Shown here one piece after another: positions 5,182-19,163 of a stretch of DNA of 55,770 bases. The stretch is from Promethearchaeota archaeon (GTDB lineage Archaea > Asgardarchaeota > Lokiarchaeia > Sigyniarchaeales > SOKP01), in NCBI GenBank assembly GCA_019057865.1, contig JAHLWP010000028.1:1-55770 (forward strand), given 5' to 3'. Made by a program: the position numbers and the translations under genes. The notes beneath the pieces were generated by a model that was given only the letters and a program-made list of their open reading frames with translations, had not been told where the DNA came from and made no database searches. Each line of letters starts with the position of its first letter. The first letter of the stretch is position 1.

Positions 5182-5832
5182 TTATGAGTATAAAAAGTTA
5201 GTATCTTTTTGGTATTTGATTTTGCCTAATTGAAGAAGATGGAGTAAATATATAAAATTTTCATAAATTTTAATTTGATCTTGTTCATCTTCAAATATTT
5301 CATCATAAGCACATGGGAGTTTCCTTTTAATGCTATTGAAGAATCTCATCATCTTTTCAGTAAATTTTTCTTTAGGTAATTCCAGATAAAATTCTTCATT
5401 AACTTTTTCTTTTTCTAGAGGTTCAAGAGAGAATACTGTCCCTTTTCTATTAAAAAGTTTATCTTTAGAGAATTCAAGAAAATTTAAGGAGAGATTATCA
5501 ATATTAAATAGATTTCTCCAACATCCTTCCAGTAATTGATAAATTTCTGTGTCTTTAGGATTTGATTTCAAATATTCTAAAATTTTATTTTCACTATCTA
5601 ATGAACTAATCAAAATTTGCAATTCTTGAAATTTTTGATTAAGTAATCTGCAGGCTTCAGAATATGTTTCAGAACCATCATAAATATTATCAATTGTAAG
5701 GAAATCTTTTATATCATTGAAGATTGGAACAAGTTCCAAATCTAATAAATTGATTTCACCTAAAAGAACTTTATTTTGTATATCTTCAATTTTTTTATTT
5801 AAATCATTATATAGGTCTTTATGTTCAACCAT
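5182..5832 (-). CDS. scpA: Kleisin (ScpA-like)
   Basis: N-terminal GEINLLDLELVPIF and C-terminal NFIYLLHLLQLGKIKYQ match kleisin N-domain and C-terminal WHD patterns; start overlaps the SMC stop (TAATG). Confidence 0.75.
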   Translation of the reverse strand: MVEHKDLYNDLNKKIEDIQNKVLLGEINLLDLELVPIFNDIKDFLTIDNIYDGSETYSEACRLLNQKFQELQILISSLDSENKILEYLKSNPKDTEIYQLLEGCWRNLFNIDNLSLNFLEFSKDKLFNRKGTVFSLEPLEKEKVNEEFYLELPKEKFTEKMMRFFNSIKRKLPCAYDEIFEDEQDQIKIYENFIYLLHLLQLGKIKYQKDTNFLYS

Positions 5833-8800
5833 TAGTTATTGTTCCTTTTTTTTTTAATAATTTTTGGTTTAAAAACTGATGATACTTCATTTTTACCGAC
5901 TCTAGCAATTCCTATTAACTTTTCAGCGAGATTAAATAAAGGAGTTGAAGATTTGGGTAGAAACATAAGCAACTGAATTGGGTTTCCTTCTAAAGTAGAC
6001 TTAATCAACTGGTAAGCAATTTCTGAATTTTTTTCATCTAAAAACATTCCTGCCTCATCAAACATACAAAGCGGAGATGGTTTAATTTCTTGAAGAGATA
6101 AAATTAAGCAAATTGATATCATTGACATTTGACCTCCGCTTAATGCTGAAAATGATTTTAATTGTTCTTTAGAGGTTGCTGCTTTAATAATAACCCCTAA
6201 ATTTTCAAAATCTCCTGTTAATCCAAGAGAACAATAAGATTTAATTTGAGAAGATTCAAATTTTTGGTTGATTTTAGATTGTAGATCTTCAATTAATAAT
6301 CCAAATTTGTTATAATATGTCTTTTCCATCTTGTTTTCAGTTTTAATTGCTGCTTTAATATCATTTTCTATATCTCTTTGGTTTTTAACGATTTCTTTAA
6401 GAGATGATATAATTTGATCTCTTTCAATCAGAATTGTGTCATCAATGTCTAAAAATTTAAGTAACTCTTTTTCTATTTTCAAGAGACCTTTTTCAATTTC
6501 ATCTATTGGTCGAATTTCTATTTTTTCTTCTAAAATCAATGGAGCTATTTCAGAATTAATCCTTTTCAAATCTTTTTTCTTTAATTCAAATTCCTGTTTA
6601 AATGCATTTAATTTAATGTTTTCTTGTTCTAACTTGAGGGTATTTTGAATATTTCTTTTGTCTATTTCACTTTTCTCAAATTGATATTGTGATTTTAATC
6701 CATTTGATTTTAAAAAAATTTTTTCGATATCTTTAAGTTCTTCATCAATCTGTTCTAAATGCTGATATATATTAAATGCTGATTTGTCTGCCTTTTGAAA
6801 ATTTTCCTTTTTTGTTTTATACTCCAGCCCTATAAGGCTAAGCGTATTATTATGTTTACTCATTTTTTCTTCGATTTCTTTTAGGAACTGTAAATTCTCA
6901 TTTAATCTTACATCCCACTTTTTCTTTTCTTCATTTAGTAATGTCAATTCATTAGGAATTTCTTTAATTCTATCATTCCACTTAAAGAAATCTGGATCAC
7001 TCTGAGTTTTTAATTCCTTAATTTTTTTATCTAATTCTTGAACTTCAACTTGAATAGATACATTATTTTTCTCTAGATTATGCATTTGTTCGTATAACAG
7101 GTTCTTTTTTGTTGTAATTCTTTGTTTTTGATTAAAATTAAATAACAGATCATTGAATGCCTCTTTTTTTCTAAAAATATCTTTTTGAATCTCATCTAAT
7201 TTAGATTGCTCTACCTTAAGCTCTGAAATATGGTCATTTGATAATTTAATTTCAGATTCTAAAATTTCTGATTGTTCTTTTTGTGTTCCAGCACTTAATA
7301 ATCCTTTTAATCTCTTTAAATAAGGTGTTTCATATACATATTTATAAGAAACAATTTGCTCTCCCTTTAAAGTAACACATTTTCCCTTGAAATTATAATC
7401 GTTATAAAGTGCTATTCCTGAACGATAATCTTTAACAACAAGGCAGTTTTTTACTTTTGAATAAATAACTTTTTTTATTTCAATGTCATCATCAGTTATA
7501 TCAATTAGTTCTGCTAAATATCCAATAACACCATTAGCAGAAATTTTAGGAAGAGGTGTGATATTGGTACTTTTAGCAACATAAATATTACAATACGCAT
7601 TATATTTATTTTTTAAGCGTTTTAATAAGTTTAAGGTATCCCAATCATGGGCAACAAAGCTATATAATAATTTTTCCCCTAAAACTGATTCAATTGCATA
7701 GCTTAACTCATCTTTATATTTCAAATAATCAATAATAGGACCTTTTACTTTTAAATCTCTTTTATTTATCTCATCTTTGAGAACACTTATGTTTGAAGGA
7801 AGAATTACTCGACGTTCTCTAAGGGAGACTTGAAGAAGTTTTAATTTTCTCAACTTCTTTGATCTTTCAATCTCTAACTGCTTTACCTCTAATTCAATCT
7901 CATAAATTTTTAAAGATGTATTTCTTAGTTCTTTATCAAGCTGTTGTAGAAGATTTTGTGTTGGATTTTCTAAAAACCACTTATTCTTTTCTAATTTGTG
8001 TTCTATATCCTTAAAGCTTTGAAATAACTGATTAATTTCATCTTTATTACTTTTATTTAGATTATCATTTTCGTGAAGCTGTTTTAATTTCTCCTTTTTC
8101 TCAGAGATTATTTGATTATACTCATCTAAAAGAGTTTTATTTTGCTTTATTTTTCTTACTAATTGATTTTGCTCTTTTATTAAGCTATCAAGGTTAAGTT
8201 CAATTTTCTTGGATTCTCTCTTAATTGTATTTAATTCAATATCCAAACTTTCTTTCTGTTTCGTAAAATTATTAGCTATTTTTTCAATTTTCTCAATTTC
8301 TTCAGCCAAGGTATCTAATTCTTGTTTGACCATTAACTTCTCTTTTTGCCATTTTTGAATTTTAGTAATTAAATCTTGTTTTTGATAATTTAATTCACCA
8401 ATTTTTTCTGAAAGTTTATTAATATTTCGTTCTTCAACTGTAATCTTTCCTATTAATTCCTCTATTTCTTTATCATGCTTTTCTTTTTTATTTTTTATTC
8501 CATCAATAACTAATCCAAGGTTTTTAATCCTTTCTTGTAAGGAGTTTATTTCTTTTTGTAGTTTATCTCGATTTGCCCATAAAAGTTCGTCATTAATTTT
8601 TTTTTTAATTTGTAATAATTTATTCTTTTGTTTTAGGCGTTCTAATTTGGGCTCTATCAATTCTAAGCTGATATTCAATGTATTTTTCTTGCTAATTAAT
8701 GAATTAAGTTCTGTATTCAAATTAAGTAAATTATTTTTTTGCTGTAAAATTTCATCCCTTAAACTTTTTAAACCAATTCCTTCTTCAAGAAAGGTGCACA

Positions 8801-9326
8801 ACTCAGTTGGTTTTAAATTTTTTATGGCAGCGATTTTTCCTTGGCTCACAATAGCAAATTGGTTATCAGGATTAATATTCAAATCAGAAATTAATTTCTG
8901 AATTTCATGAGCTTGAACTTTTTTAAAATCATTGTCATTCTTTCTTTGAATTTTAAAAAATGGTGATTGTCCTCTGATTACAATTCTTCTTATTTTAATT
9001 ACTTCTTCATCTTTTTGAATATGAATTTCAACCAAGGTATGATTTTGGCCATTCCTTATGAAGTTTGACCATTTTTTATAACGCTCATCTCTCTCATTGC
9101 TTCCTAAAGCAAATTTAATTGCTTGGAATACAGATGTTTTACCACTCCAGTTAGGTCCTACAATAATTACAAATTTAGCTTTTCCAAAATCTACTTCATC
9201 CTTTTGGAAAGATAAGAAATTCTCTAAAATGACCTTTCTAATGAATATTTCTTTTCTTTGAGATAATTTATTGTTATTTTCTTTAAGGTTTAATTGTGAT
9301 TGAATGGTCATTTTTACCATATCCAC
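5832..9326 (-). CDS. smc: SMC ATPase, Smc5/6-related type
   Basis: LENFLSF, Walker A GPNWSGKT, Q-loop PDNQFAIVSQG, two long coiled coils around a hinge (VKGPIIDYL), signature LSGGQ, Walker B/D-loop SPLCMFDEAGMFLD, terminal QLLMFLPK. Confidence 0.9.
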   Translation of the reverse strand: MDMVKMTIQSQLNLKENNNKLSQRKEIFIRKVILENFLSFQKDEVDFGKAKFVIIVGPNWSGKTSVFQAIKFALGSNERDERYKKWSNFIRNGQNHTLVEIHIQKDEEVIKIRRIVIRGQSPFFKIQRKNDNDFKKVQAHEIQKLISDLNINPDNQFAIVSQGKIAAIKNLKPTELCTFLEEGIGLKSLRDEILQQKNNLLNLNTELNSLISKKNTLNISLELIEPKLERLKQKNKLLQIKKKINDELLWANRDKLQKEINSLQERIKNLGLVIDGIKNKKEKHDKEIEELIGKITVEERNINKLSEKIGELNYQKQDLITKIQKWQKEKLMVKQELDTLAEEIEKIEKIANNFTKQKESLDIELNTIKRESKKIELNLDSLIKEQNQLVRKIKQNKTLLDEYNQIISEKKEKLKQLHENDNLNKSNKDEINQLFQSFKDIEHKLEKNKWFLENPTQNLLQQLDKELRNTSLKIYEIELEVKQLEIERSKKLRKLKLLQVSLRERRVILPSNISVLKDEINKRDLKVKGPIIDYLKYKDELSYAIESVLGEKLLYSFVAHDWDTLNLLKRLKNKYNAYCNIYVAKSTNITPLPKISANGVIGYLAELIDITDDDIEIKKVIYSKVKNCLVVKDYRSGIALYNDYNFKGKCVTLKGEQIVSYKYVYETPYLKRLKGLLSAGTQKEQSEILESEIKLSNDHISELKVEQSKLDEIQKDIFRKKEAFNDLLFNFNQKQRITTKKNLLYEQMHNLEKNNVSIQVEVQELDKKIKELKTQSDPDFFKWNDRIKEIPNELTLLNEEKKKWDVRLNENLQFLKEIEEKMSKHNNTLSLIGLEYKTKKENFQKADKSAFNIYQHLEQIDEELKDIEKIFLKSNGLKSQYQFEKSEIDKRNIQNTLKLEQENIKLNAFKQEFELKKKDLKRINSEIAPLILEEKIEIRPIDEIEKGLLKIEKELLKFLDIDDTILIERDQIISSLKEIVKNQRDIENDIKAAIKTENKMEKTYYNKFGLLIEDLQSKINQKFESSQIKSYCSLGLTGDFENLGVIIKAATSKEQLKSFSALSGGQMSMISICLILSLQEIKPSPLCMFDEAGMFLDEKNSEIAYQLIKSTLEGNPIQLLMFLPKSSTPLFNLAEKLIGIARVGKNEVSSVFKPKIIKKKRNNN

Positions 9327-9333
9327 TTAAATA

Positions 9334-10608
9334 CTATTTTCCAAAAGCTTGTTTAATATGATCCATCCTTTTCTTAGCCTTTTCTAAATTAATTTGGGCT
9401 CTATTTGGAGAATCATTAAGAATAAATGGATAAATCGCCAAAATTTTCCTATCATTATCTTCAAGAGGTTCATTTTTATTTAATTTATCAATTATTAGCA
9501 CAAGTTCATTATAATTTTTAGAAGCTGCATTTTCATATAATTGATTTAACATAAATTCGGAAGTGTTTGATTGTCGGATGTAATCAACAATCTCACTTAC
9601 GTCCGTAATGGTAATTTGTTCATTTTTTTTCTGATTTGGTATTGTTGGAATATTGAGTATTTTTTCTTCTGGGGATTCTATATCCTCCGAAATCTCTGAA
9701 ATTTTAGAGTTGATTGAAGGGATATATTCGCCTGATTCAATTAAATCGATTAAAATGTCTGTTATTTCATTACTAGTTTCATTTAATTCTGAATTTAAAA
9801 AGTGTTTAAAGATTCCAACTTTTAATAACTGATTTATATCTTTTACTTCCCAATTAACTGTATACTTAACTATAGCATTAACATCGAATACAATTTTAGG
9901 ATTTCTTTCCAAAAAATGTCTAAGTATTGTCTCTCTTTCTATTTCATTTAAAAGAGGTATTTTAATAAAAAGGTCAAATGTATTATATAATTGATTTGAA
10001 TTATCGGCTATCTCTTTTAAATCATAATTAATCCAAATTATTAGCAAATTTGAGTTAAGAAAGTTTAAATAACTATCGTTATTTTGCTGGATATCTATAA
10101 ACTTTTGTAATAAACTTTCTCCTTGTAAAATTTTCGTTAACTTCTTTTGTTGATTTATAATTATTAATTTCTTATTATCATTTTTTTCATAATTCGTTTG
10201 ATCAGGTTTATCTTTCTCTGCGTTACCAGTTTCTAATTCTTTTTCTGATTTTGAAGCCATACCAAGGCTTGTTATGATTGAATTAAAGTTGTTTAAAAAT
10301 TTATTTTGAGATTTCATAATCTCTTTATAATCTAACTCGATAAGATCTAAATAATAGTTGCTTGAAATTAACTTAATAAAATCAATTAGGTCTGTTCCTA
10401 GATTTATATTAATTAAAAGTGCTCCTTTTGGTTTAACATATTCCTGTATTACCATATCGTCACTTTTAGTTAACATTACCTTTATATAATTAATAATGTC
10501 ATTATATTTGTCCCGATAAAAGATATTTTCTTTATTAATATCAATTTCTGATGGTGAAATTAATCGAAAGTACTTTAAAAATTCCGGAATCTTACTTAAA
10601 TCATTCAT
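9334..10608 (-). CDS. Degenerate (probably inactive) AAA+ protein of the PAN/CDC48/FtsH clade
   Basis: KPKGALLININLGTDLIDFIKLIS aligns to PKGVLLxGPPGTGKTLLAKAVA without GKT; FDLFIKIPLLNEIERETILRHFL aligns to FDRIIEFPIPDEKAREAIFKIH of the PAN in this window; WEVKDINQLL aligns to ATGADIKAIC. Confidence 0.65.
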   Translation of the reverse strand: MNDLSKIPEFLKYFRLISPSEIDINKENIFYRDKYNDIINYIKVMLTKSDDMVIQEYVKPKGALLININLGTDLIDFIKLISSNYYLDLIELDYKEIMKSQNKFLNNFNSIITSLGMASKSEKELETGNAEKDKPDQTNYEKNDNKKLIIINQQKKLTKILQGESLLQKFIDIQQNNDSYLNFLNSNLLIIWINYDLKEIADNSNQLYNTFDLFIKIPLLNEIERETILRHFLERNPKIVFDVNAIVKYTVNWEVKDINQLLKVGIFKHFLNSELNETSNEITDILIDLIESGEYIPSINSKISEISEDIESPEEKILNIPTIPNQKKNEQITITDVSEIVDYIRQSNTSEFMLNQLYENAASKNYNELVLIIDKLNKNEPLEDNDRKILAIYPFILNDSPNRAQINLEKAKKRMDHIKQAFGK

Positions 10609-10867: not shown

Positions 10868-11116
10868 TTACTTTTGTTCCCATGGCATACAGAAAAATCC
10901 CTTTTCTAATTCATATTTTGAGAACAACCCACAACCAAAACAGCTACATCCTTTATTTTCTACTTGGTCTTTAGTTTTAGTTGTTTGTCCTCTCGAACAG
11001 AATAAGGCATGTGGCTCAAACTCATTAAGTTGATTTGGTTTGAAAGAAGGACAAGGTCCACAAAATTTTCTGCATTCATTCATTGATTCTTCTGTATCTG
11101 GAACCGGTAATGGCAT
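10868..11116 (-). CDS. Small Cys-rich protein (DUF2769-like)
   Basis: CxxxCxxCPSF...LFCSRG...GCSCFGC...YxL..GFFC pattern; 8 Cys. Confidence 0.75.
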   Translation of the reverse strand: MPLPVPDTEESMNECRKFCGPCPSFKPNQLNEFEPHALFCSRGQTTKTKDQVENKGCSCFGCGLFSKYELEKGFFCMPWEQK

Positions 11117-11239: not shown

Positions 11240-11632
11240 TTAATCAAAATCAAATTCTTCACTTAATATCCTTAAATATGATTTTAATTGGTTTTTAACC
11301 AATCCGTAATAAGTGAATTTACCTTTCTTCCATCCCCGAATTAAGTCCACTTTTTCAAGCTCTCTTAAATGATGAGATATTGATGGTTGAGATTTATCTA
11401 ATATGACCTCTAATTCGCAAACGCAACGATCTTTCTCTTTCAAGGCATATAATATTGTTAAACGCTCTTTATTACCTATTGCATTTAAACTAGTCAACAT
11501 AGCATTGAAATTATCATTATAGCTTAAATTATTACCTAAATTTTGCAAACTTTCAAATAATTTCTCACTATCGATGCATTCCTCACAGCTGCATAGCATC
11601 CCTTTAATTTCTGTTTTTCTTTTTTGTTTCAT
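11240..11632 (-). CDS. arsR: ArsR/SmtB transcriptional repressor
   Basis: RLTILYAL...CVCEL...SQPSISHHLREL...GKFTYY; extra N-terminal CSCEEC; divergent from acr3. Confidence 0.93.
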   Translation of the reverse strand: MKQKRKTEIKGMLCSCEECIDSEKLFESLQNLGNNLSYNDNFNAMLTSLNAIGNKERLTILYALKEKDRCVCELEVILDKSQPSISHHLRELEKVDLIRGWKKGKFTYYGLVKNQLKSYLRILSEEFDFD

Positions 11633-11692
11633 AAAAAATCAATTTTATCATTATTATCTTGATAGAAGCCACAAGATTATAAAAGTTTTACC

Positions 11693-11730
11693 CATATCGA
11701 ATTATTTGAATTCAAATCGAAATATTTTTA
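11693..11730. promoter_or_regulatory. Candidate ArsR operator
   Basis: Perfect 14-bp palindrome ATTTGAATTCAAAT (11704-11717) flanked by two ATCGAA half-sites, between divergent arsR and acr3. Confidence 0.5.
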
Positions 11731-11797
11731 TTTGAACAATTCTATTAATAACTCAAGCTTTAACAAAATATTCAACAATTTTTTAAATCAGGTTAAA

Positions 11798-12868
11798 ATG
11801 AGTGAGTTACAAATCGAAAAAGTTATAGAAAGTGAAGTTGAAAAACCTAAAAAAATTAGTATTTTCGAAAAATTATTGCCTCTTTGGGTATTATTATGCA
11901 TAATAGCAGGAATATTATTATCTCAATTAATCCCTCAAATTAGTGAAGGTATTGATGCATTGCAGATTGGTGGAATCTCAATACCAATAGGTATATGCCT
12001 ATTTTTAATGATGTATCCAGCAATGTTAAATATCCAAGCATCTGAACTTAAGAAACTAGGAAAAAATCCTAAACCAATTATCTTAACTTTAGTATCAAAT
12101 TGGCTTATTGCGCCTTTTGTAGGCCTAGCAATGGTAAATCTATTTTTACAAGGAACTAGCAATACAATAAAAGAATTAACAGTGGCTATAATACTTCTAA
12201 GTTCAAGTCCATGCACAGCAATGGTTTTAGTGTGGGGTTGGATGGCTAAAGGAAACCAAGAACAGAATGTAGTGAATACAAGCCTGAATACAATAACGAT
12301 TATCTTTCTATATGTTCCTATGGTTACTTTTTTAACAGGTATTAAAAATATTCAAATCGATTGGATACTTTTATTGATTTCATTAGTATTCTTTATTGGA
12401 CTTCCATTATTCTTAGGCATACTCAGTAAACGATTGGTTATTGCATCTAAAGGAGAAGATTGGTTTAATAATACATATCGTCCTTTCGTTGGGAAAATCT
12501 CGATTATTGCATTGTTAACAACATTAATAGTCCTATTTTCATTAAATGGTGATGTTTTAATAAATAATCCGAATTATTTATTATTAGTTTCAATTCCACT
12601 CTTGGTTGGCTTCGTCATTGTAGTAGGATATAATGTAATTATGACAATAATCTTTAAATTGAAATATAAAGAAGCAGTAATTACAGTTATAATTGGTTCT
12701 TCAAGTCATTTCGAGATAGCAATTGCTACTGCTATAGCTATATATGGAATTGGATCTATTGCCGCTTTAGGTACAACTATGGGGTTATTCTGGGAAGTTC
12801 CAGTGATGCTTTCTATAGTATATTTAGGAAGATATTTAGAAAAAAAAGGTTTTTGGAAAACGAATTAA
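11798..12868 (+). CDS. acr3: Acr3 arsenite efflux permease
   Basis: FEKLLPLWV, MMYPAM, NWLIAP, PCTAMVLVW, SSSHFEIAIATAI, EVPVML; ~10 TM segments. ATG 11798 preferred over TTG 11732. Confidence 0.95.
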   Translation: MSELQIEKVIESEVEKPKKISIFEKLLPLWVLLCIIAGILLSQLIPQISEGIDALQIGGISIPIGICLFLMMYPAMLNIQASELKKLGKNPKPIILTLVSNWLIAPFVGLAMVNLFLQGTSNTIKELTVAIILLSSSPCTAMVLVWGWMAKGNQEQNVVNTSLNTITIIFLYVPMVTFLTGIKNIQIDWILLLISLVFFIGLPLFLGILSKRLVIASKGEDWFNNTYRPFVGKISIIALLTTLIVLFSLNGDVLINNPNYLLLVSIPLLVGFVIVVGYNVIMTIIFKLKYKEAVITVIIGSSSHFEIAIATAIAIYGIGSIAALGTTMGLFWEVPVMLSIVYLGRYLEKKGFWKTN

Positions 12869-12920: not shown

Positions 12921-14579
12921 ATGGCAGTCGTTTATATGCGAAAACTGGAAGAGGAACCCGAATCTTATGATTCTAAATTTACAACCCTTACAAAGGGAGT
13001 AAATCTTGAAGTTCAAGACTGGGTTCTAAATCATGTTAATTCTTCGGAGTCAATATTAGAAATAGGATGTGGTACTGGCTCTCTTGCATCAAAAGTGGCT
13101 TTAAAGGGGAATAATGTTATTGCGATCGATAAAAATTTCCAAATGATTAATTATGCAATGCAGAATTATCCTAATAACATATCCAGTGAGAATCTTTTAT
13201 ATCAAATTGGTTCATTTACTGATTTACCCGTCGAAATATGTTCTCAAGATGTTGTGATAAGTACTTTTATGTTATCTGAACTTCGTCCATTAGAACAGCA
13301 AATCCTTCTTAGAAACATTTGGAGGGTATTAAAACCAAATGGTCACTTAATTTTGGCTGCTGAATTTGTTCCTTCTGGTTTTTGGAAATTAACGTTTAAG
13401 ATTAAAAGGTGGCGGTATAAGAAGAAGTTAAAACGACTCCGTTTAAAGAGTACATTTCTTGTTAAATGGTTTTTTAAATATATAGAACCTATAGGATTTA
13501 AAATCAATTCTCAGAAAAAATGGAAGTATGATTCAATTCAAGCAATAGAACTTAGAAAAGTTAATGATAAAAAAAATAAAGAGCCTGGTTATTATAAACC
13601 TGAAAAAAAAAGATTTAAAGGACTGCTATCGCAATTAAGAATTTATCGTTGTATTTTAACTGGACAAGTTGATCGGGTTCCTATTGAACCTGGAATTTAT
13701 CAATCTGGGAATCCCAATAAAATGTCACCTATAATTGTAACTGCCAATTATGAATATACATATATTAAAGTTATGCGTGATCTTAAAGGGCTCGATGCTT
13801 GGGTATTATGTGTGGATTCAAACGGAATTAATGTATGGTGTGCCGCTCGCGGTAATGATTTTGGTAATAAACAACTTCTTGAGGTAGTAGAAGCAACAGG
13901 GATTAAAAATCTAACTGAGAAAAAAATATTAATACTTCCACAACTCTCGGCTGGAGGAGTTGCAATACCTCAACTTCCAAAAAAGTCTGAGAAATTCCCA
14001 TTTAGAATTAAATATGGCCCTGTTTGGTCAAAATTTATTCCTCAGTTTGTAGAAGATGAGGCAACTCGAAAACCAGAACATATGAAACTAGCAAGATTTA
14101 CGCTATTCCATCGAATTCGTGCCGGAATAACTCACACGACATTTTTATTTCGAAAAATATTTCTCTTACCTTTATTTGCACTAATAATACTATTCTCAGC
14201 TTTAAATTGGTTTTACAAATTATGGTGGATTGGTGAGTTAACTCTCTCGATACTATGCATAAATTTAGTTATAGTACTCTTATTTCCCCTTGCAAGATTC
14301 ACTAGAAGATTTATATTCAAAGGGATTTTTTTTGGGGTAATTAACATTATTCTCTTTGGAAGTTTATCATATTTAATTCATAGCTCGATATACTATATAC
14401 TCTGGCATATATGTTTTTACTTTTGGATTACTTTCTTCTCAACAATGTCATTTAGTGGATACACAATGGCTACAAGCCAAAGAGAAATTCAAGAGGAATA
14501 TCCAATATTTAGTGTAATAAATAAAATTTTGTTTGTTTTAAGTTTGATTTTTCTAACTTTAGGAATTATATTTTATTAA
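12921..14579 (+). CDS. hgcA: Fusion: class I SAM methyltransferase + HgcA-like corrinoid-binding domain + C-terminal TM bundle
   Basis: N-terminal ILEIGCGTG motif I and RVLKPNG; then VPIEPGIY.SGNP...SPIIVTANY, cap helix GINVWCAARG (NVWCAARG at 13830-13853), LILPQLSAGGV, YGPV; about 5 TM helices ending SFSGYTMATS. The symbol denotes homology, not proven Hg methylation. Confidence 0.85.
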   Translation: MAVVYMRKLEEEPESYDSKFTTLTKGVNLEVQDWVLNHVNSSESILEIGCGTGSLASKVALKGNNVIAIDKNFQMINYAMQNYPNNISSENLLYQIGSFTDLPVEICSQDVVISTFMLSELRPLEQQILLRNIWRVLKPNGHLILAAEFVPSGFWKLTFKIKRWRYKKKLKRLRLKSTFLVKWFFKYIEPIGFKINSQKKWKYDSIQAIELRKVNDKKNKEPGYYKPEKKRFKGLLSQLRIYRCILTGQVDRVPIEPGIYQSGNPNKMSPIIVTANYEYTYIKVMRDLKGLDAWVLCVDSNGINVWCAARGNDFGNKQLLEVVEATGIKNLTEKKILILPQLSAGGVAIPQLPKKSEKFPFRIKYGPVWSKFIPQFVEDEATRKPEHMKLARFTLFHRIRAGITHTTFLFRKIFLLPLFALIILFSALNWFYKLWWIGELTLSILCINLVIVLLFPLARFTRRFIFKGIFFGVINIILFGSLSYLIHSSIYYILWHICFYFWITFFSTMSFSGYTMATSQREIQEEYPIFSVINKILFVLSLIFLTLGIIFY

Positions 14580-14628
14580 AAAAACTTTAAAAAAATTGAA
14601 AGGTATAAAAAAATAAAAGGTAAGAAAG

Positions 14629-14994
14629 ATGACAGAAATAAATCTTAAATCATTTAATTTTACTGAAATTGTAAAAGATCTACGGATTTTTATTGATAAA
14701 CAAATCTGTAATGGCTGTGGGCTTTGTGGAGAAATTTGCCCATTTGGTCTTCCTCAAGTCACTGATTCTGGTAAATATGAAATAAGAAATCCTAATTTAT
14801 GTACAGAATGCAGTGCTTGTAAAAGAAATTGCCCAACGCAAGCAATTATATTGAATGAACGAAAGGGTTGTGGTTGCTTATGGGATGCCAGAGGACGAGC
14901 GAAAAGTTCTAAAAAAGGAAATATTAAGGAGAATAGTTGTGCCTGCGGTTCAGACACACAATCAAATTCAAATAATAGTTGTTGTGGAGCATAG
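14629..14994 (+). CDS. hgcB: HgcB-like 2x[4Fe-4S] ferredoxin with Cys-rich tail
   Basis: CNGCGLCGEICP, CTECSACKRNCP (cf. HgcB C[MI]ECGAC), GCGC (cf. GVGC), tail CAC...SCCG; directly after the hgcA-like gene. Confidence 0.8.
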   Translation: MTEINLKSFNFTEIVKDLRIFIDKQICNGCGLCGEICPFGLPQVTDSGKYEIRNPNLCTECSACKRNCPTQAIILNERKGCGCLWDARGRAKSSKKGNIKENSCACGSDTQSNSNNSCCGA

Positions 14995-15030: not shown

Positions 15031-15351
15031 ATGAAAAGTGAAGAATTAAAAAGTATACCCATAAAAGATAACAAGAAAACAATAGATTCCAGTAAATTAC
15101 AGGTAGATATATATGTTCCTTTGGATGCATGTGCATGCGAATGGTCTCAGTTTATGAATTTAATATTCAATGCTATTACGCCATATATAAAGCATATCAA
15201 GCACGAAACAAAATCACTAAACTCAGAAGAAGCACAAAATCTTAATCTGCATAGCAATTGTGTAATTGTAGATGGAGAGAAAAGATTTTCTTCATCATTT
15301 ACACTTAAGAAGGAACTACCAAAACTTCTTAAAGCTAGAGGACTTATTTAG
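15031..15351 (+). CDS. Thioredoxin-fold, ArsD-like putative metalloid chaperone
   Basis: VDIYVPLDACAC resembles ArsD IEIFDPAMCC; C-terminal CVIVDGE...KEL; ars-operon context. Confidence 0.55.
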   Translation: MKSEELKSIPIKDNKKTIDSSKLQVDIYVPLDACACEWSQFMNLIFNAITPYIKHIKHETKSLNSEEAQNLNLHSNCVIVDGEKRFSSSFTLKKELPKLLKARGLI

Positions 15352-15381: not shown

Positions 15382-15744
15382 TTGGGGGTGATAATAAAAA
15401 TTAAGAAAATTAAGTTAACAATTTTTGCTCCGGATCCTGAAAAGAAGTTATCAAATGGACTTGATTACAACTTAACTATAGATGATAATGGATCAATAAT
15501 TGACGCATTAAGCATTTTAGATAAAATTATTTATGAAAATCCTGAAAAATCTATTTTCCCCATATATAAAGGCTTAATTCACAGTTATCTTCAGTTAATA
15601 TGGGACGCTGAGGAAAATGCTATTTATGACGATTGTGCAGTAAACGCCTATGGCCCAAACAAAGAATTCATACCTTTACACGAAGATATAAATTTTAACT
15701 TATATCCTGATAGTGAAATTACAATAGCTGTTCATGCTGATTGA
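15382..15744 (+). CDS. Hypothetical protein, possible beta-grasp (MoaD/ubiquitin-like) fold lacking C-terminal GG
   Basis: IKLTIF...LTI..NGSIIDAL..L...AVNAY...LYPDSEITI pattern; ends VHAD-TGA-TGA. Confidence 0.55.
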   Translation: MGVIIKIKKIKLTIFAPDPEKKLSNGLDYNLTIDDNGSIIDALSILDKIIYENPEKSIFPIYKGLIHSYLQLIWDAEENAIYDDCAVNAYGPNKEFIPLHEDINFNLYPDSEITIAVHAD

Positions 15745-18637: not shown

Positions 18638-19163
18638 TCATCTCTTAATGTGGTTTATTTTTTGGATTATATAAGTTATACAATCAAATCCCGTGGTATT
18701 TTTCTTGACCATCTCTATTTCATTTACATGTCGTTTAATATCTTCAATATCATCGAGATTATCATGCTTTTTACGTAAAGTATTAATCTTTTCCTCCAAG
18801 GGAGCATAATATTCCGTCCACCAACATTCCTTTGCCCAAGGTATTTGTTTAACGAGTTTAAAGCCGAATTTAGGGAAGTGCTTGAGCTTTCTATCTGCCC
18901 AGTTAGTCGCTTCACCCGTGATCATAAAGCCATTCAGGTTCAGCACTCTATTACATTCCGTTAAGGTTTTCTTGAGATCAAGCAAGTGTATAACCCCTTC
19001 TTTCCAAATAATGTCAAACCTCTCGTCCTCAAATTGCGTGTCATATACTGAACGATTATACACCTTTACCCTGTCTGGAAGACCTTCTTGCTTAATCTTA
19101 AGATTTAATTTATCCAAGGCACTCTGATCAATGTCAATTCCAGTTATCTCACCATTACTTAAC
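18638..19163 (-). pseudogene. Class I SAM methyltransferase lacking its N-terminus (motif I)
   Basis: Frame continues upstream of the ORF call as LSNGEITGIDIDQSALDKL; FDIIWKEGV and RVLNLNG present; no GxG motif or start codon. Confidence 0.75.

Follow-up and report, generated by a model that had tools for sequence, protein, structure and literature searches.

The corrinoid membrane protein HgcA and its ferredoxin partner HgcB form, to our knowledge, the only known enzyme that makes methylmercury, and both the native function and the origin of this system are debated. Related proteins have already been recognized by the curators of NCBIfam, which contains a 'corrinoid protein-associated methyltransferase CpaM' (NF043040) and an 'HgcAB-like fusion protein' (NF043039). 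Here we describe a further arrangement of these modules in a DNA stretch of 55,770 nucleotides from a Promethearchaeota archaeon (assembly GCA_019057865.1, contig JAHLWP010000028.1, positions 1 to 55,770), the whole of which is called the window below and which has a G+C content of about 29%. One gene in the window (12921-14579, + strand) encodes a 552-residue protein in which a CpaM-type S-adenosylmethionine (SAM) methyltransferase is joined to an HgcA-like corrinoid protein with five transmembrane (TM) helices, and the next gene (14629-14994, + strand) encodes an HgcB-like ferredoxin. While the CpaM/HgcAB-like kind of system is already known, the fusion arrangement, the separate clade to which it belongs and its setting in an ars operon are new, and literature searches found no paper describing the fusion.

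We propose that the fusion and the ferredoxin together form a membrane-bound methyl-transfer enzyme of the HgcAB type, dependent on cobalamin and equipped with its own SAM module, a proposal in which we place about as much belief as doubt. The likeliest acceptor would be As(III) or Sb(III), and not Hg(II), because a candidate ArsR-controlled promoter, a probable ACR3 pump and a thioredoxin-fold CxC protein accompany the module.

A conserved fusion of CpaM- and HgcA-type domains

The open reading frame (ORF) consists of 552 stop-free codons and has three parts, all on the + strand: a methyltransferase domain (residues 1-215; 12921-13565), a corrinoid-binding domain (residues ~235-390; 13623-14090) and a five-helix TM domain (residues 395-552; 14103-14576). 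A preliminary description of the locus, made from the sequence alone, had reported this architecture, and Pfam, NCBIfam and an AlphaFold2 model all bear it out. Pfam matches are found to Methyltransf_11 (residues 46-145, E 2.9e-16) and CdhD/PF03599 (residues 235-344, E 7.8e-15), and the corrinoid domain also matches the corrinoid iron-sulfur protein (CFeSP) gamma subunit in the PDB (2h9a, E 1.9e-8). The best NCBIfam family for the N-terminus (residues 3-212) is CpaM NF043040, with 137.6 bits (cut-off 180), about 90 bits more than the 47 bits of the next family. The remainder scores 173.4 bits with HgcAB_like NF043039 (residues 253-508, covering model positions 14-259 only; cut-off 285) and 164.6 bits with HgcA_corrinoid NF040863 (residues 254-543; cut-off 275), compared with 63.9 bits for CdhE NF003195 (cut-off 306), which matches the C-terminal corrinoid domain only.

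The residues expected to matter for both cofactors are strictly conserved. Among 55 aligned fusions, down to 23% identity, the invariant positions in the methyltransferase domain are G49, G51 and G53 of motif I (EIGCGTG), D70, D110, E120 and E148, and in the corrinoid domain N304, V305, C307 and A309. The latter lie in the cap helix NVWCAARG (residues 304-311; 13830-13853), which keeps the Cys and Trp of the N(V/I)WCA(A/G)GK consensus, with RG replacing GK, exactly as had been noted earlier; Cys307 is the presumed lower cobalt ligand. In residues 1-215 no conserved set of Cys residues was found across the aligned fusions, the only Cys being C50 inside motif I, which is not invariant. It therefore seems unlikely that the methyltransferase domain itself binds arsenite as ArsM does, and an assignment of the domain as ArsM was rejected on this ground and on its score with NF008823 (41 bits, cut-off 263).

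The AlphaFold2 model, built on the 55 fusion sequences, has a mean predicted local distance difference test (pLDDT) value of 91.6 and a predicted template modelling score of 0.88, and consists of a Rossmann-type domain, an alpha/beta corrinoid domain and C-terminal helices. Five of the latter are long according to DSSP (residues 395-427, 431-458, 464-487, 490-512 and 520-551), and the loop between TM4 and TM5 contains the conserved sequence MSFSGYTMATS.REIQ.EY. The top Foldseek match of the model is a computed HgcAB structure (9a0b_A, E 2.8e-12, 313 columns). The N-terminal domain resembles many class I methyltransferases, the closest being of the lipid/quinone type (PmtA 8ys9, Coq5 4obw and UbiG 4kdc). 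This last similarity would favour a different acceptor, namely a non-metal, membrane-associated organic or small molecule such as a lipid, quinone, thiol or halomethane, with the ars linkage of one Asgard family being secondary or regulatory. We regard such an acceptor as rather improbable, and return to it below with the gene context.

The fusion is a genuine, conserved gene. A word-indexed search retrieved at least 120 full-length homologues of about 550 residues (64-92% identity) from independent assemblies, all with the methyltransferase and CdhD pair, and this conservation rules out a misassembly, a frameshift or a chance ORF. An alignment of 20 homologues shows no drop in conservation between the domains and their junction, and practically no variation in NVWCAARG. 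The preliminary description had asked for the fusion to be sought in relatives, and full-length fusions turned up in 29 genomes of an evenly drawn Asgard sample of 151 (in 27 of its 72 high-quality genomes), including 17 of the 25 genomes of the window's own family, where it is always single-copy (59-91% identity). A scan of species-representative genomes gave full-length matches at 16 close and six thorarchaeal loci, and at about 17 in bacteria (Anaerolineales, Poribacteria, Desulfobacteraceae). More fusions, of about 525-590 residues and down to about 30% identity, were found by a HMMER search with the HgcA part; their cap helices read NVWCAARG in other Asgard lineages and NVWCAAGG in Anaerolineales-type sequences, while of the 135 hits with a cap helix recognized by the motif scan, 111 have NVWCAAGK.

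CpaM pairing, ferredoxin partner and family placement

The same genome contains a second pair of these modules, on contig C10 (L008:233-2005), where a stand-alone CpaM of 220 residues (233-895; 242 bits, cut-off 180) is followed after 15 nt by a true HgcAB-like fusion protein of 364 residues (911-2005; 362 bits, cut-off 285) with the cap sequence NVWCGACG; the ORF after it presumably encodes an acetyl-CoA hydrolase/transferase-like protein. The N-terminal domain of the window fusion is 33% identical to this CpaM (E 3e-24), including an N-terminal helix signature M..YM..LE...E.YD, and its C-terminal part is 29% identical to the HgcAB-like protein. In the Asgard sample a CpaM homologue lies directly upstream of, or is fused in frame to, the HgcAB-like gene at all 30 of the 30 best loci, as opposed to none of 41 loci with canonical hgcA, where no adjacent CpaM was found. 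Three arrangements of the modules occur: CpaM next to a fused HgcA-HgcB, all three in one frame, and CpaM-HgcA next to a separate HgcB, as in the window. The triple fusions have about 590-670 residues and were found at Asgard loci L114, L116-L118, L121, L122, L126, L127, L129 and L131, in the Desulfobacteraceae loci L045 and L059, and as sequence P0274 (591 residues). Because the same three modules are joined in each of these ways, there is strong comparative evidence that CpaM, HgcA and HgcB work together.

The fusion had previously been taken as Rosetta-stone evidence for a link between the methyltransferase and the corrinoid protein. The link is real and, on the counts given above, general, but it is not new: it had been anticipated by the NCBIfam curators who named CpaM, and some Asgard fusions already carry that name in PGAP annotation.

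The 121-residue product of 14629-14994 has two CxxCxxCxxxCP motifs (C27/30/33/37 and C58/61/64/68), as expected for a 2x[4Fe-4S] ferredoxin, followed by GCGC, CAC and a C-terminal CC (C118-C119), in agreement with its earlier recognition as an HgcB-like protein with a Cys-rich tail. Its best NCBIfam family is HgcB NF040864 (46.9 bits, cut-off 99). Among 29 orthologues the eight cluster Cys residues, G80, G82 and C83 are invariant and C119 is nearly so, and wherever the available sequence extends far enough, the gene lies directly downstream of the fusion gene. In HgcB the residues equivalent to C83 and the C-terminal CC, namely the Cys that follows the clusters and the terminal pair, are important (residues listed in PMC11588087).

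Structure prediction supports binding of the ferredoxin to the fusion. The predicted complex scored 0.77, with 0.00 for the best of three controls, although the score may partly reflect memory of the computed HgcAB model 9a0b in the PDB, where our search found no crystal or cryo-EM structure of HgcAB. The mark applied to such predictions is reached by 58 of 80 solved complexes and by 2 of 110 mismatched pairs; at least 75% of contacts are shared between runs, and the partner has a pLDDT of 67 or more. The predicted interface consists of the cap helix (306-312), a PQLSAGG loop (341-351) and the TM4-TM5 loop (509-531) of the fusion, facing ferredoxin residues 34-40, 56-69 and 76-91, i.e. the second cluster and the GCGC segment.

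Family tree analysis was performed by maximum likelihood on 73 sequences and 310 columns (LG+C20+F+G4, 1000 ultrafast bootstraps), with CdhE from the same genome as outgroup. Three clades are distinguished: canonical HgcA (support 100/99), from which the window protein is excluded; the HgcAB-like fusions (100/97), to which the C10 paralogue and a triple fusion belong; and the Asgard NVWCAARG methyltransferase fusions, including the window protein (98/92, with 100/99 at an inner node). A small number of further methyltransferase fusions branch apart, and the backbone is not resolved. In a quick tree the NVWCAARG clade appeared as sister to canonical HgcA (Shimodaira-Hasegawa-like approximate likelihood ratio test 94), but with the backbone of the more careful tree in view no claim of sister relationship or ancestry is kept. 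In a published HgcA phylogeny with Asgard sequences, the first 327 columns of the alignment had been removed because of poor alignment (PMC10083202). Grouping of the corrinoid part with CdhD/E, which the preliminary description had named as the outcome to check for, is ruled out both by the tree, where CdhE sits on a long outgroup branch, and by the scores (165-173 bits for HgcA-type families against 64 for CdhE). The comparison thus gives good support for the window protein as a member of a third HgcA-family clade, which is neither the canonical mercury methylase nor the curated HgcAB-like equivalog.

This placement bears on one of the other readings, in which the protein is a plain mercury methylase like canonical HgcAB and the methyltransferase domain is an accessory. 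The family and the partner are indeed the same, and the cobalt-ligating Cys, the Trp and the HgcB cysteines relevant to Hg methylation are kept (residues in PMC11588087). However, the score of 164.6 bits falls well below the HgcA cut-off of 275, the protein lies outside the canonical clade, and its cap helix departs from N(V/I)WCA(A/G)GK; moreover, the sole non-canonical relative that has been tested did not methylate Hg (PMC10083202), and the operon described below includes a probable As/Sb-specific pump and no mer genes. We consider this reading quite unlikely. The variant cap helix marks the separate clade, and the ars-operon context fits the earlier suggestion that the variant motifs may indicate a substrate other than Hg.

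The ars operon and a proposed function

The fusion gene is part of an apparent operon with the order arsR (divergent), acr3, fusion, hgcB-like, thioredoxin-fold CxC protein and a small family-less protein. The ArsR/SmtB-family repressor gene arsR (11240-11632, - strand; Pfam HTH_5 E 1e-14) encodes a CVC motif in helix alpha-3 (RCVCELE) and an N-terminal CSCEEC. The acr3 gene (11798-12868, + strand) encodes a probable arsenite/antimonite efflux permease of the ACR3 family, with 277.9 bits for TIGR00832 (slightly below the cut-off of 282.8; model positions 1-325 of 327), a clear match to Pfam SBF (E 1.4e-38) and the motifs PCTAMV and EVPVML; its frame is open from a TTG at 11732, but the ATG at 11798 is the likely start. 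The intervening region (11676-11736) is a candidate archaeal promoter and operator, recognized by its sequence and inverted repeats: it contains a TATA-like TTATAAAAGTTTTA, two ATCGAA repeats, the palindrome TTTGAATTCAAA (11705-11716) and ATCGAAATATTTTTATTTGAA. The element ATCGAAATATTTTTAT(T/A)TGA recurs at the same place in L001 and in L023, where it stands directly before the fusion gene with no acr3, and with one substitution (ATCCAAATATTTTTATATGA) in L027, where acr3 is also missing and an FMN-reductase gene precedes the fusion gene; a TATA-like element accompanies the block in both acr3-less loci. The palindrome is confined to the window and is not conserved in the orthologous promoters, in contrast to the ATCGAA-repeat/TTTTTAT(T/A)TGA block, which forms the conserved part. 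Between arsR and the FMN-reductase gene of L027 (L027:5022-5384) a short ORF for a peptide of about 27 residues with two CC pairs (MGEKTKECC...EGCC) was seen, which may be a Cys-pair peptide or a product of chance.

The order arsR, (DUF166), acr3, (arsM), fusion, hgcB, thioredoxin-like and small-protein gene recurs in L001, L003/L036, L005, L022, L024 and L037, labelled as Heimdall-, Loki- and Promethearchaeota, with the flanking SMC gene kept as well; in L003 a genuine arsM (347 bits, cut-off 263) lies between acr3 and the fusion gene. The DUF166 gene, found between arsR and acr3 in L001, L003/L036, L024 and L033 and not in the window, is weakly similar to the DfsP (seleno)protein family (34.5 bits). 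Thorarchaeal fusions (about 30% identity) have an upstream, same-strand ArsR with a CVC motif (ACVCEI), and in all, three separate Asgard contexts have a regulator with a CVC or CC motif upstream. Regulators of this kind suggest that a thiophilic metal(loid) is the controlling signal; the linkage to ACR3 indicates As(III)/Sb(III) and not Hg.

The product of 15031-15351 (+ strand) has an invariant CxC (C34, C36) at the position of the CxxC of thioredoxin. Its AlphaFold2 model (pLDDT 83.5) has a thioredoxin fold, as 47 of the 50 listed Foldseek hits in the PDB are thioredoxins or thioredoxin-based designs and the other three, including rank 1, are calsequestrin (E about 3e-3, template modelling score about 0.55). 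Several orthologues (L024:8139-8573, L028:2165-2602, L036:8744-9130) have N-terminal tails with two or three CC pairs, in which they resemble a metal(loid) chaperone; the gene is confined to ars-type loci, and its product may be related to the PF13192 'ArsE' proteins of organoarsenical operons. The gene for the small protein (15382-15744, + strand; 120 residues) always comes after the thioredoxin-fold gene and has orthologues of 70-120 residues in seven loci, ending in HAD or DVGC, and no Pfam, NCBIfam or PDB match. Profile searches of both small proteins against PDB sequences gave no hits. A language-model lead for P0005, to 2-oxoglutarate-Fe(II) oxygenase clusters (score 0.91, low recognition), was too weak and was not used.

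A catalytic cycle can be proposed from these observations, although its chemical steps and the identity of the acceptor are what we infer. The HgcB-like ferredoxin would dock on the cap helix and the TM4-TM5 loop and reduce the corrinoid to Co(I). The CpaM-type domain would bind SAM through the invariant motif I, D70, D110, E120 and E148 and offer its methyl group to Co(I), giving a Cys307-ligated methyl-Co(III) in which Cys307 tunes the methyl-Co bond. The methyl group would then pass to a thiophilic metal(loid) held by the ferredoxin cysteines (GCGC and the C-terminal CC). Read most simply, this would be the cycle of canonical HgcAB, for which methyl transfer from SAM to Co(I) has been demonstrated (PMC11588087), with a SAM-binding domain of its own added.

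Several observations weigh against metalloid methylation by this route. Among the 17 close loci ArsR adjoins the fusion in 9-10 but ACR3 in only 8, about half, and in a second subgroup the regulator is instead of the MarR type, with three Cys pairs. Bacterial fusions have TetR-type neighbours and no ars genes nearby, and the partner ferredoxins of Anaerolineales have no Cys tail. Consequently the term 'self-contained metal(loid) methylase' of the preliminary description should be read as an interpretation, the ars context being present in about half of the close relatives and in none of the bacterial fusions. The ArsR of the window lacks the third alpha-3 Cys of R773 ArsR, though N-terminal Cys residues are present. 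Such a Cys arrangement also fits Cd/Pb sensing of the CadC type. The same caveat was raised in a preprint (bioRxiv 10.1101/2022.10.17.512643), which further reports that deletion of hgcAB in P. mercurii lowered tolerance to As(V) and not to As(III). Canonical hgcAB, which methylates Hg, likewise lies near ars genes, in 5 of 41 loci here and as found before (PMC7438021), and this counts in favour of the plain mercury methylase too. In canonical HgcAB, finally, SAM has been shown experimentally to be the methyl donor to Co(I) without any methyltransferase domain (PMC11588087), so in principle the reaction does not require such a domain, which in the fusion may do something else.

The more distant fusions without nearby ars genes and the tail-less Anaerolineales ferredoxins would also suit the non-metal acceptor introduced above, as would the dechlorination of CCl4 by HgcAB reported in a 2026 preprint (10.64898/2026.04.26.720869). 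The Asgard members, in contrast, all keep Cys-rich HgcB tails, and the CVC/CC regulators of three separate contexts and a thioredoxin-fold CxC protein with CC-rich tails in the operon speak against such an acceptor; dehalogenation, which needs Co(I) only, would leave an obligate SAM-binding partner unexplained.

Arsenite methylation by the fusion would moreover be redundant, since a true ArsM is encoded in the L003 operon and, away from the ars operon, in the window's own genome (C1:35098-35970, locus L102; 337.6 bits, cut-off 263). A demethylase or further-processing enzyme would not be redundant. This opens the way to a main reaction with another methyl donor or acceptor, for example anaerobic demethylation by methyl transfer from mono- or dimethylarsenicals (MAs/DMAs) to Co(I), in which CpaM and the ferredoxin would serve only the reductive reactivation of accidentally oxidised Co(II) as in MetH. 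MetH is known to repair Co(II) with an electron donor and SAM. Its reactivation domain, however, is not a class I Rossmann methyltransferase. Reductive activation is discussed in PMC11588087. Neither the protein nor its conserved neighbours contain another donor or acceptor domain (a folate/pterin TIM barrel, an MtaB/MttB-like partner), and the stoichiometric presence of CpaM, fused or adjacent, at each locus seen fits a catalytic role. We therefore judge a reactivation role improbable, and continue to prefer SAM-dependent methylation of As(III) or Sb(III) through cobalamin.

If this preference is correct, a wider and more doubtful proposal can be made, which we put forward only tentatively: that metalloids are methylated by a second route, independent of ArsM, in Asgard archaea and, with the modules arranged otherwise, in some Chloroflexota and Desulfobacterota. 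In this route CpaM would load a Cys-ligated cobalamin in a membrane protein, and from there the methyl group would reach As(III)/Sb(III) on a Cys-rich ferredoxin. It would follow that coupling to CpaM is the earlier condition in the HgcA family and that the canonical mercury methylase is a derived form, which lost its partner and took to using SAM directly. Every non-canonical HgcA branch examined is tied to one SAM methyltransferase, by adjacency or by fusion with two different junctions, and canonical HgcA is not. Methylation and demethylation of arsenic are observed in anoxic sediments and are explained only partly by ArsM. The arsR/acr3 context in several Asgard genomes, together with the thorarchaeal CVC ArsR, leads to the hypothesis of a cobalamin-dependent methylation or other transformation of As/Sb in such sediments. 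The tie to CpaM agrees with the 2024 finding of SAM as methyl donor (PMC11588087) and provides a mutable module for the question of SAM-to-corrinoid transfer. Even if the arsenic hypothesis is wrong, these genes should not count as mercury methylators in metagenome surveys.

Some features around the operon were recorded as well. A gene for a DUF2769 protein of 82 residues (10868-11116, - strand) adjoins arsR, and may be a member of the ars regulon as it is kept at the same place in L024, L026 and L037 (74-77% identity). An SMC gene and a gene for a 424-residue family-less protein (5832-10608, - strand) flank the operon and are syntenic with it in L001, L003 and L005; this synteny in several Asgard genomes suggests that the block was inherited as a single piece. 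Further away, an ORF of 159 residues (18638-19117, - strand) resembles class I methyltransferase profiles in their second half alone (Methyltransf_11 positions 37-94), and may be a truncated gene or have a misplaced start. The window also encodes a PAN proteasomal ATPase, which together with the Promethearchaeota and other Asgard labels of the fusion homologues identifies the host as an Asgard archaeon.

Comparison with known systems

The closest described system is the pair of CpaM and HgcAB-like protein, with which the window system shares the SAM motifs, the NVWC cap helix, the 5-TM domain and the 2x[4Fe-4S] module. It differs in the position of the joint, as CpaM and HgcA are fused and HgcB is separate, in its clade and in its ars operon; the ferredoxin has a long Cys-rich tail that is absent in the fused form, and both halves of the fusion remain under the curated cut-offs (137.6 vs 180 and 173.4 vs 285 bits). 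With HgcA and HgcB it has in common a CFeSP-derived corrinoid domain, a cap helix with a Cys ligand on cobalt, five TM helices and a ferredoxin in which a Cys follows the clusters and a CC pair lies at the C-terminus. Canonical HgcA, however, has neither a methyltransferase domain nor a CpaM neighbour (0 of 41 loci), has the cap NVWCAAGK instead of NVWCAARG, and forms a distinct clade; we do not expect the native role of the window system to be Hg methylation.

More distant is the large subunit of CFeSP, CdhE/AcsC, whose corrinoid domain is homologous to that of the fusion; the latter lacks the N-terminal [4Fe-4S] domain and the TIM barrel, and has a membrane domain. CFeSP receives its methyl group from a methyl-pterin via a separate methyltransferase, and the genome studied here encodes CdhE and CdhD elsewhere. 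ArsM shares with the fusion the class I SAM fold and the position after acr3 in ars operons, and arsenite methylation is the proposed end result of both, but the chemistry of the fusion is proposed to run through cobalamin, and it has no conserved set of As-binding Cys residues. In the reactivation of MetH, as in the proposed loading step, SAM together with an electron donor of low potential converts a protein-bound corrinoid to methyl-Co(III), but the module responsible has an unrelated fold and carries out a repair reaction and not a main catalytic cycle.

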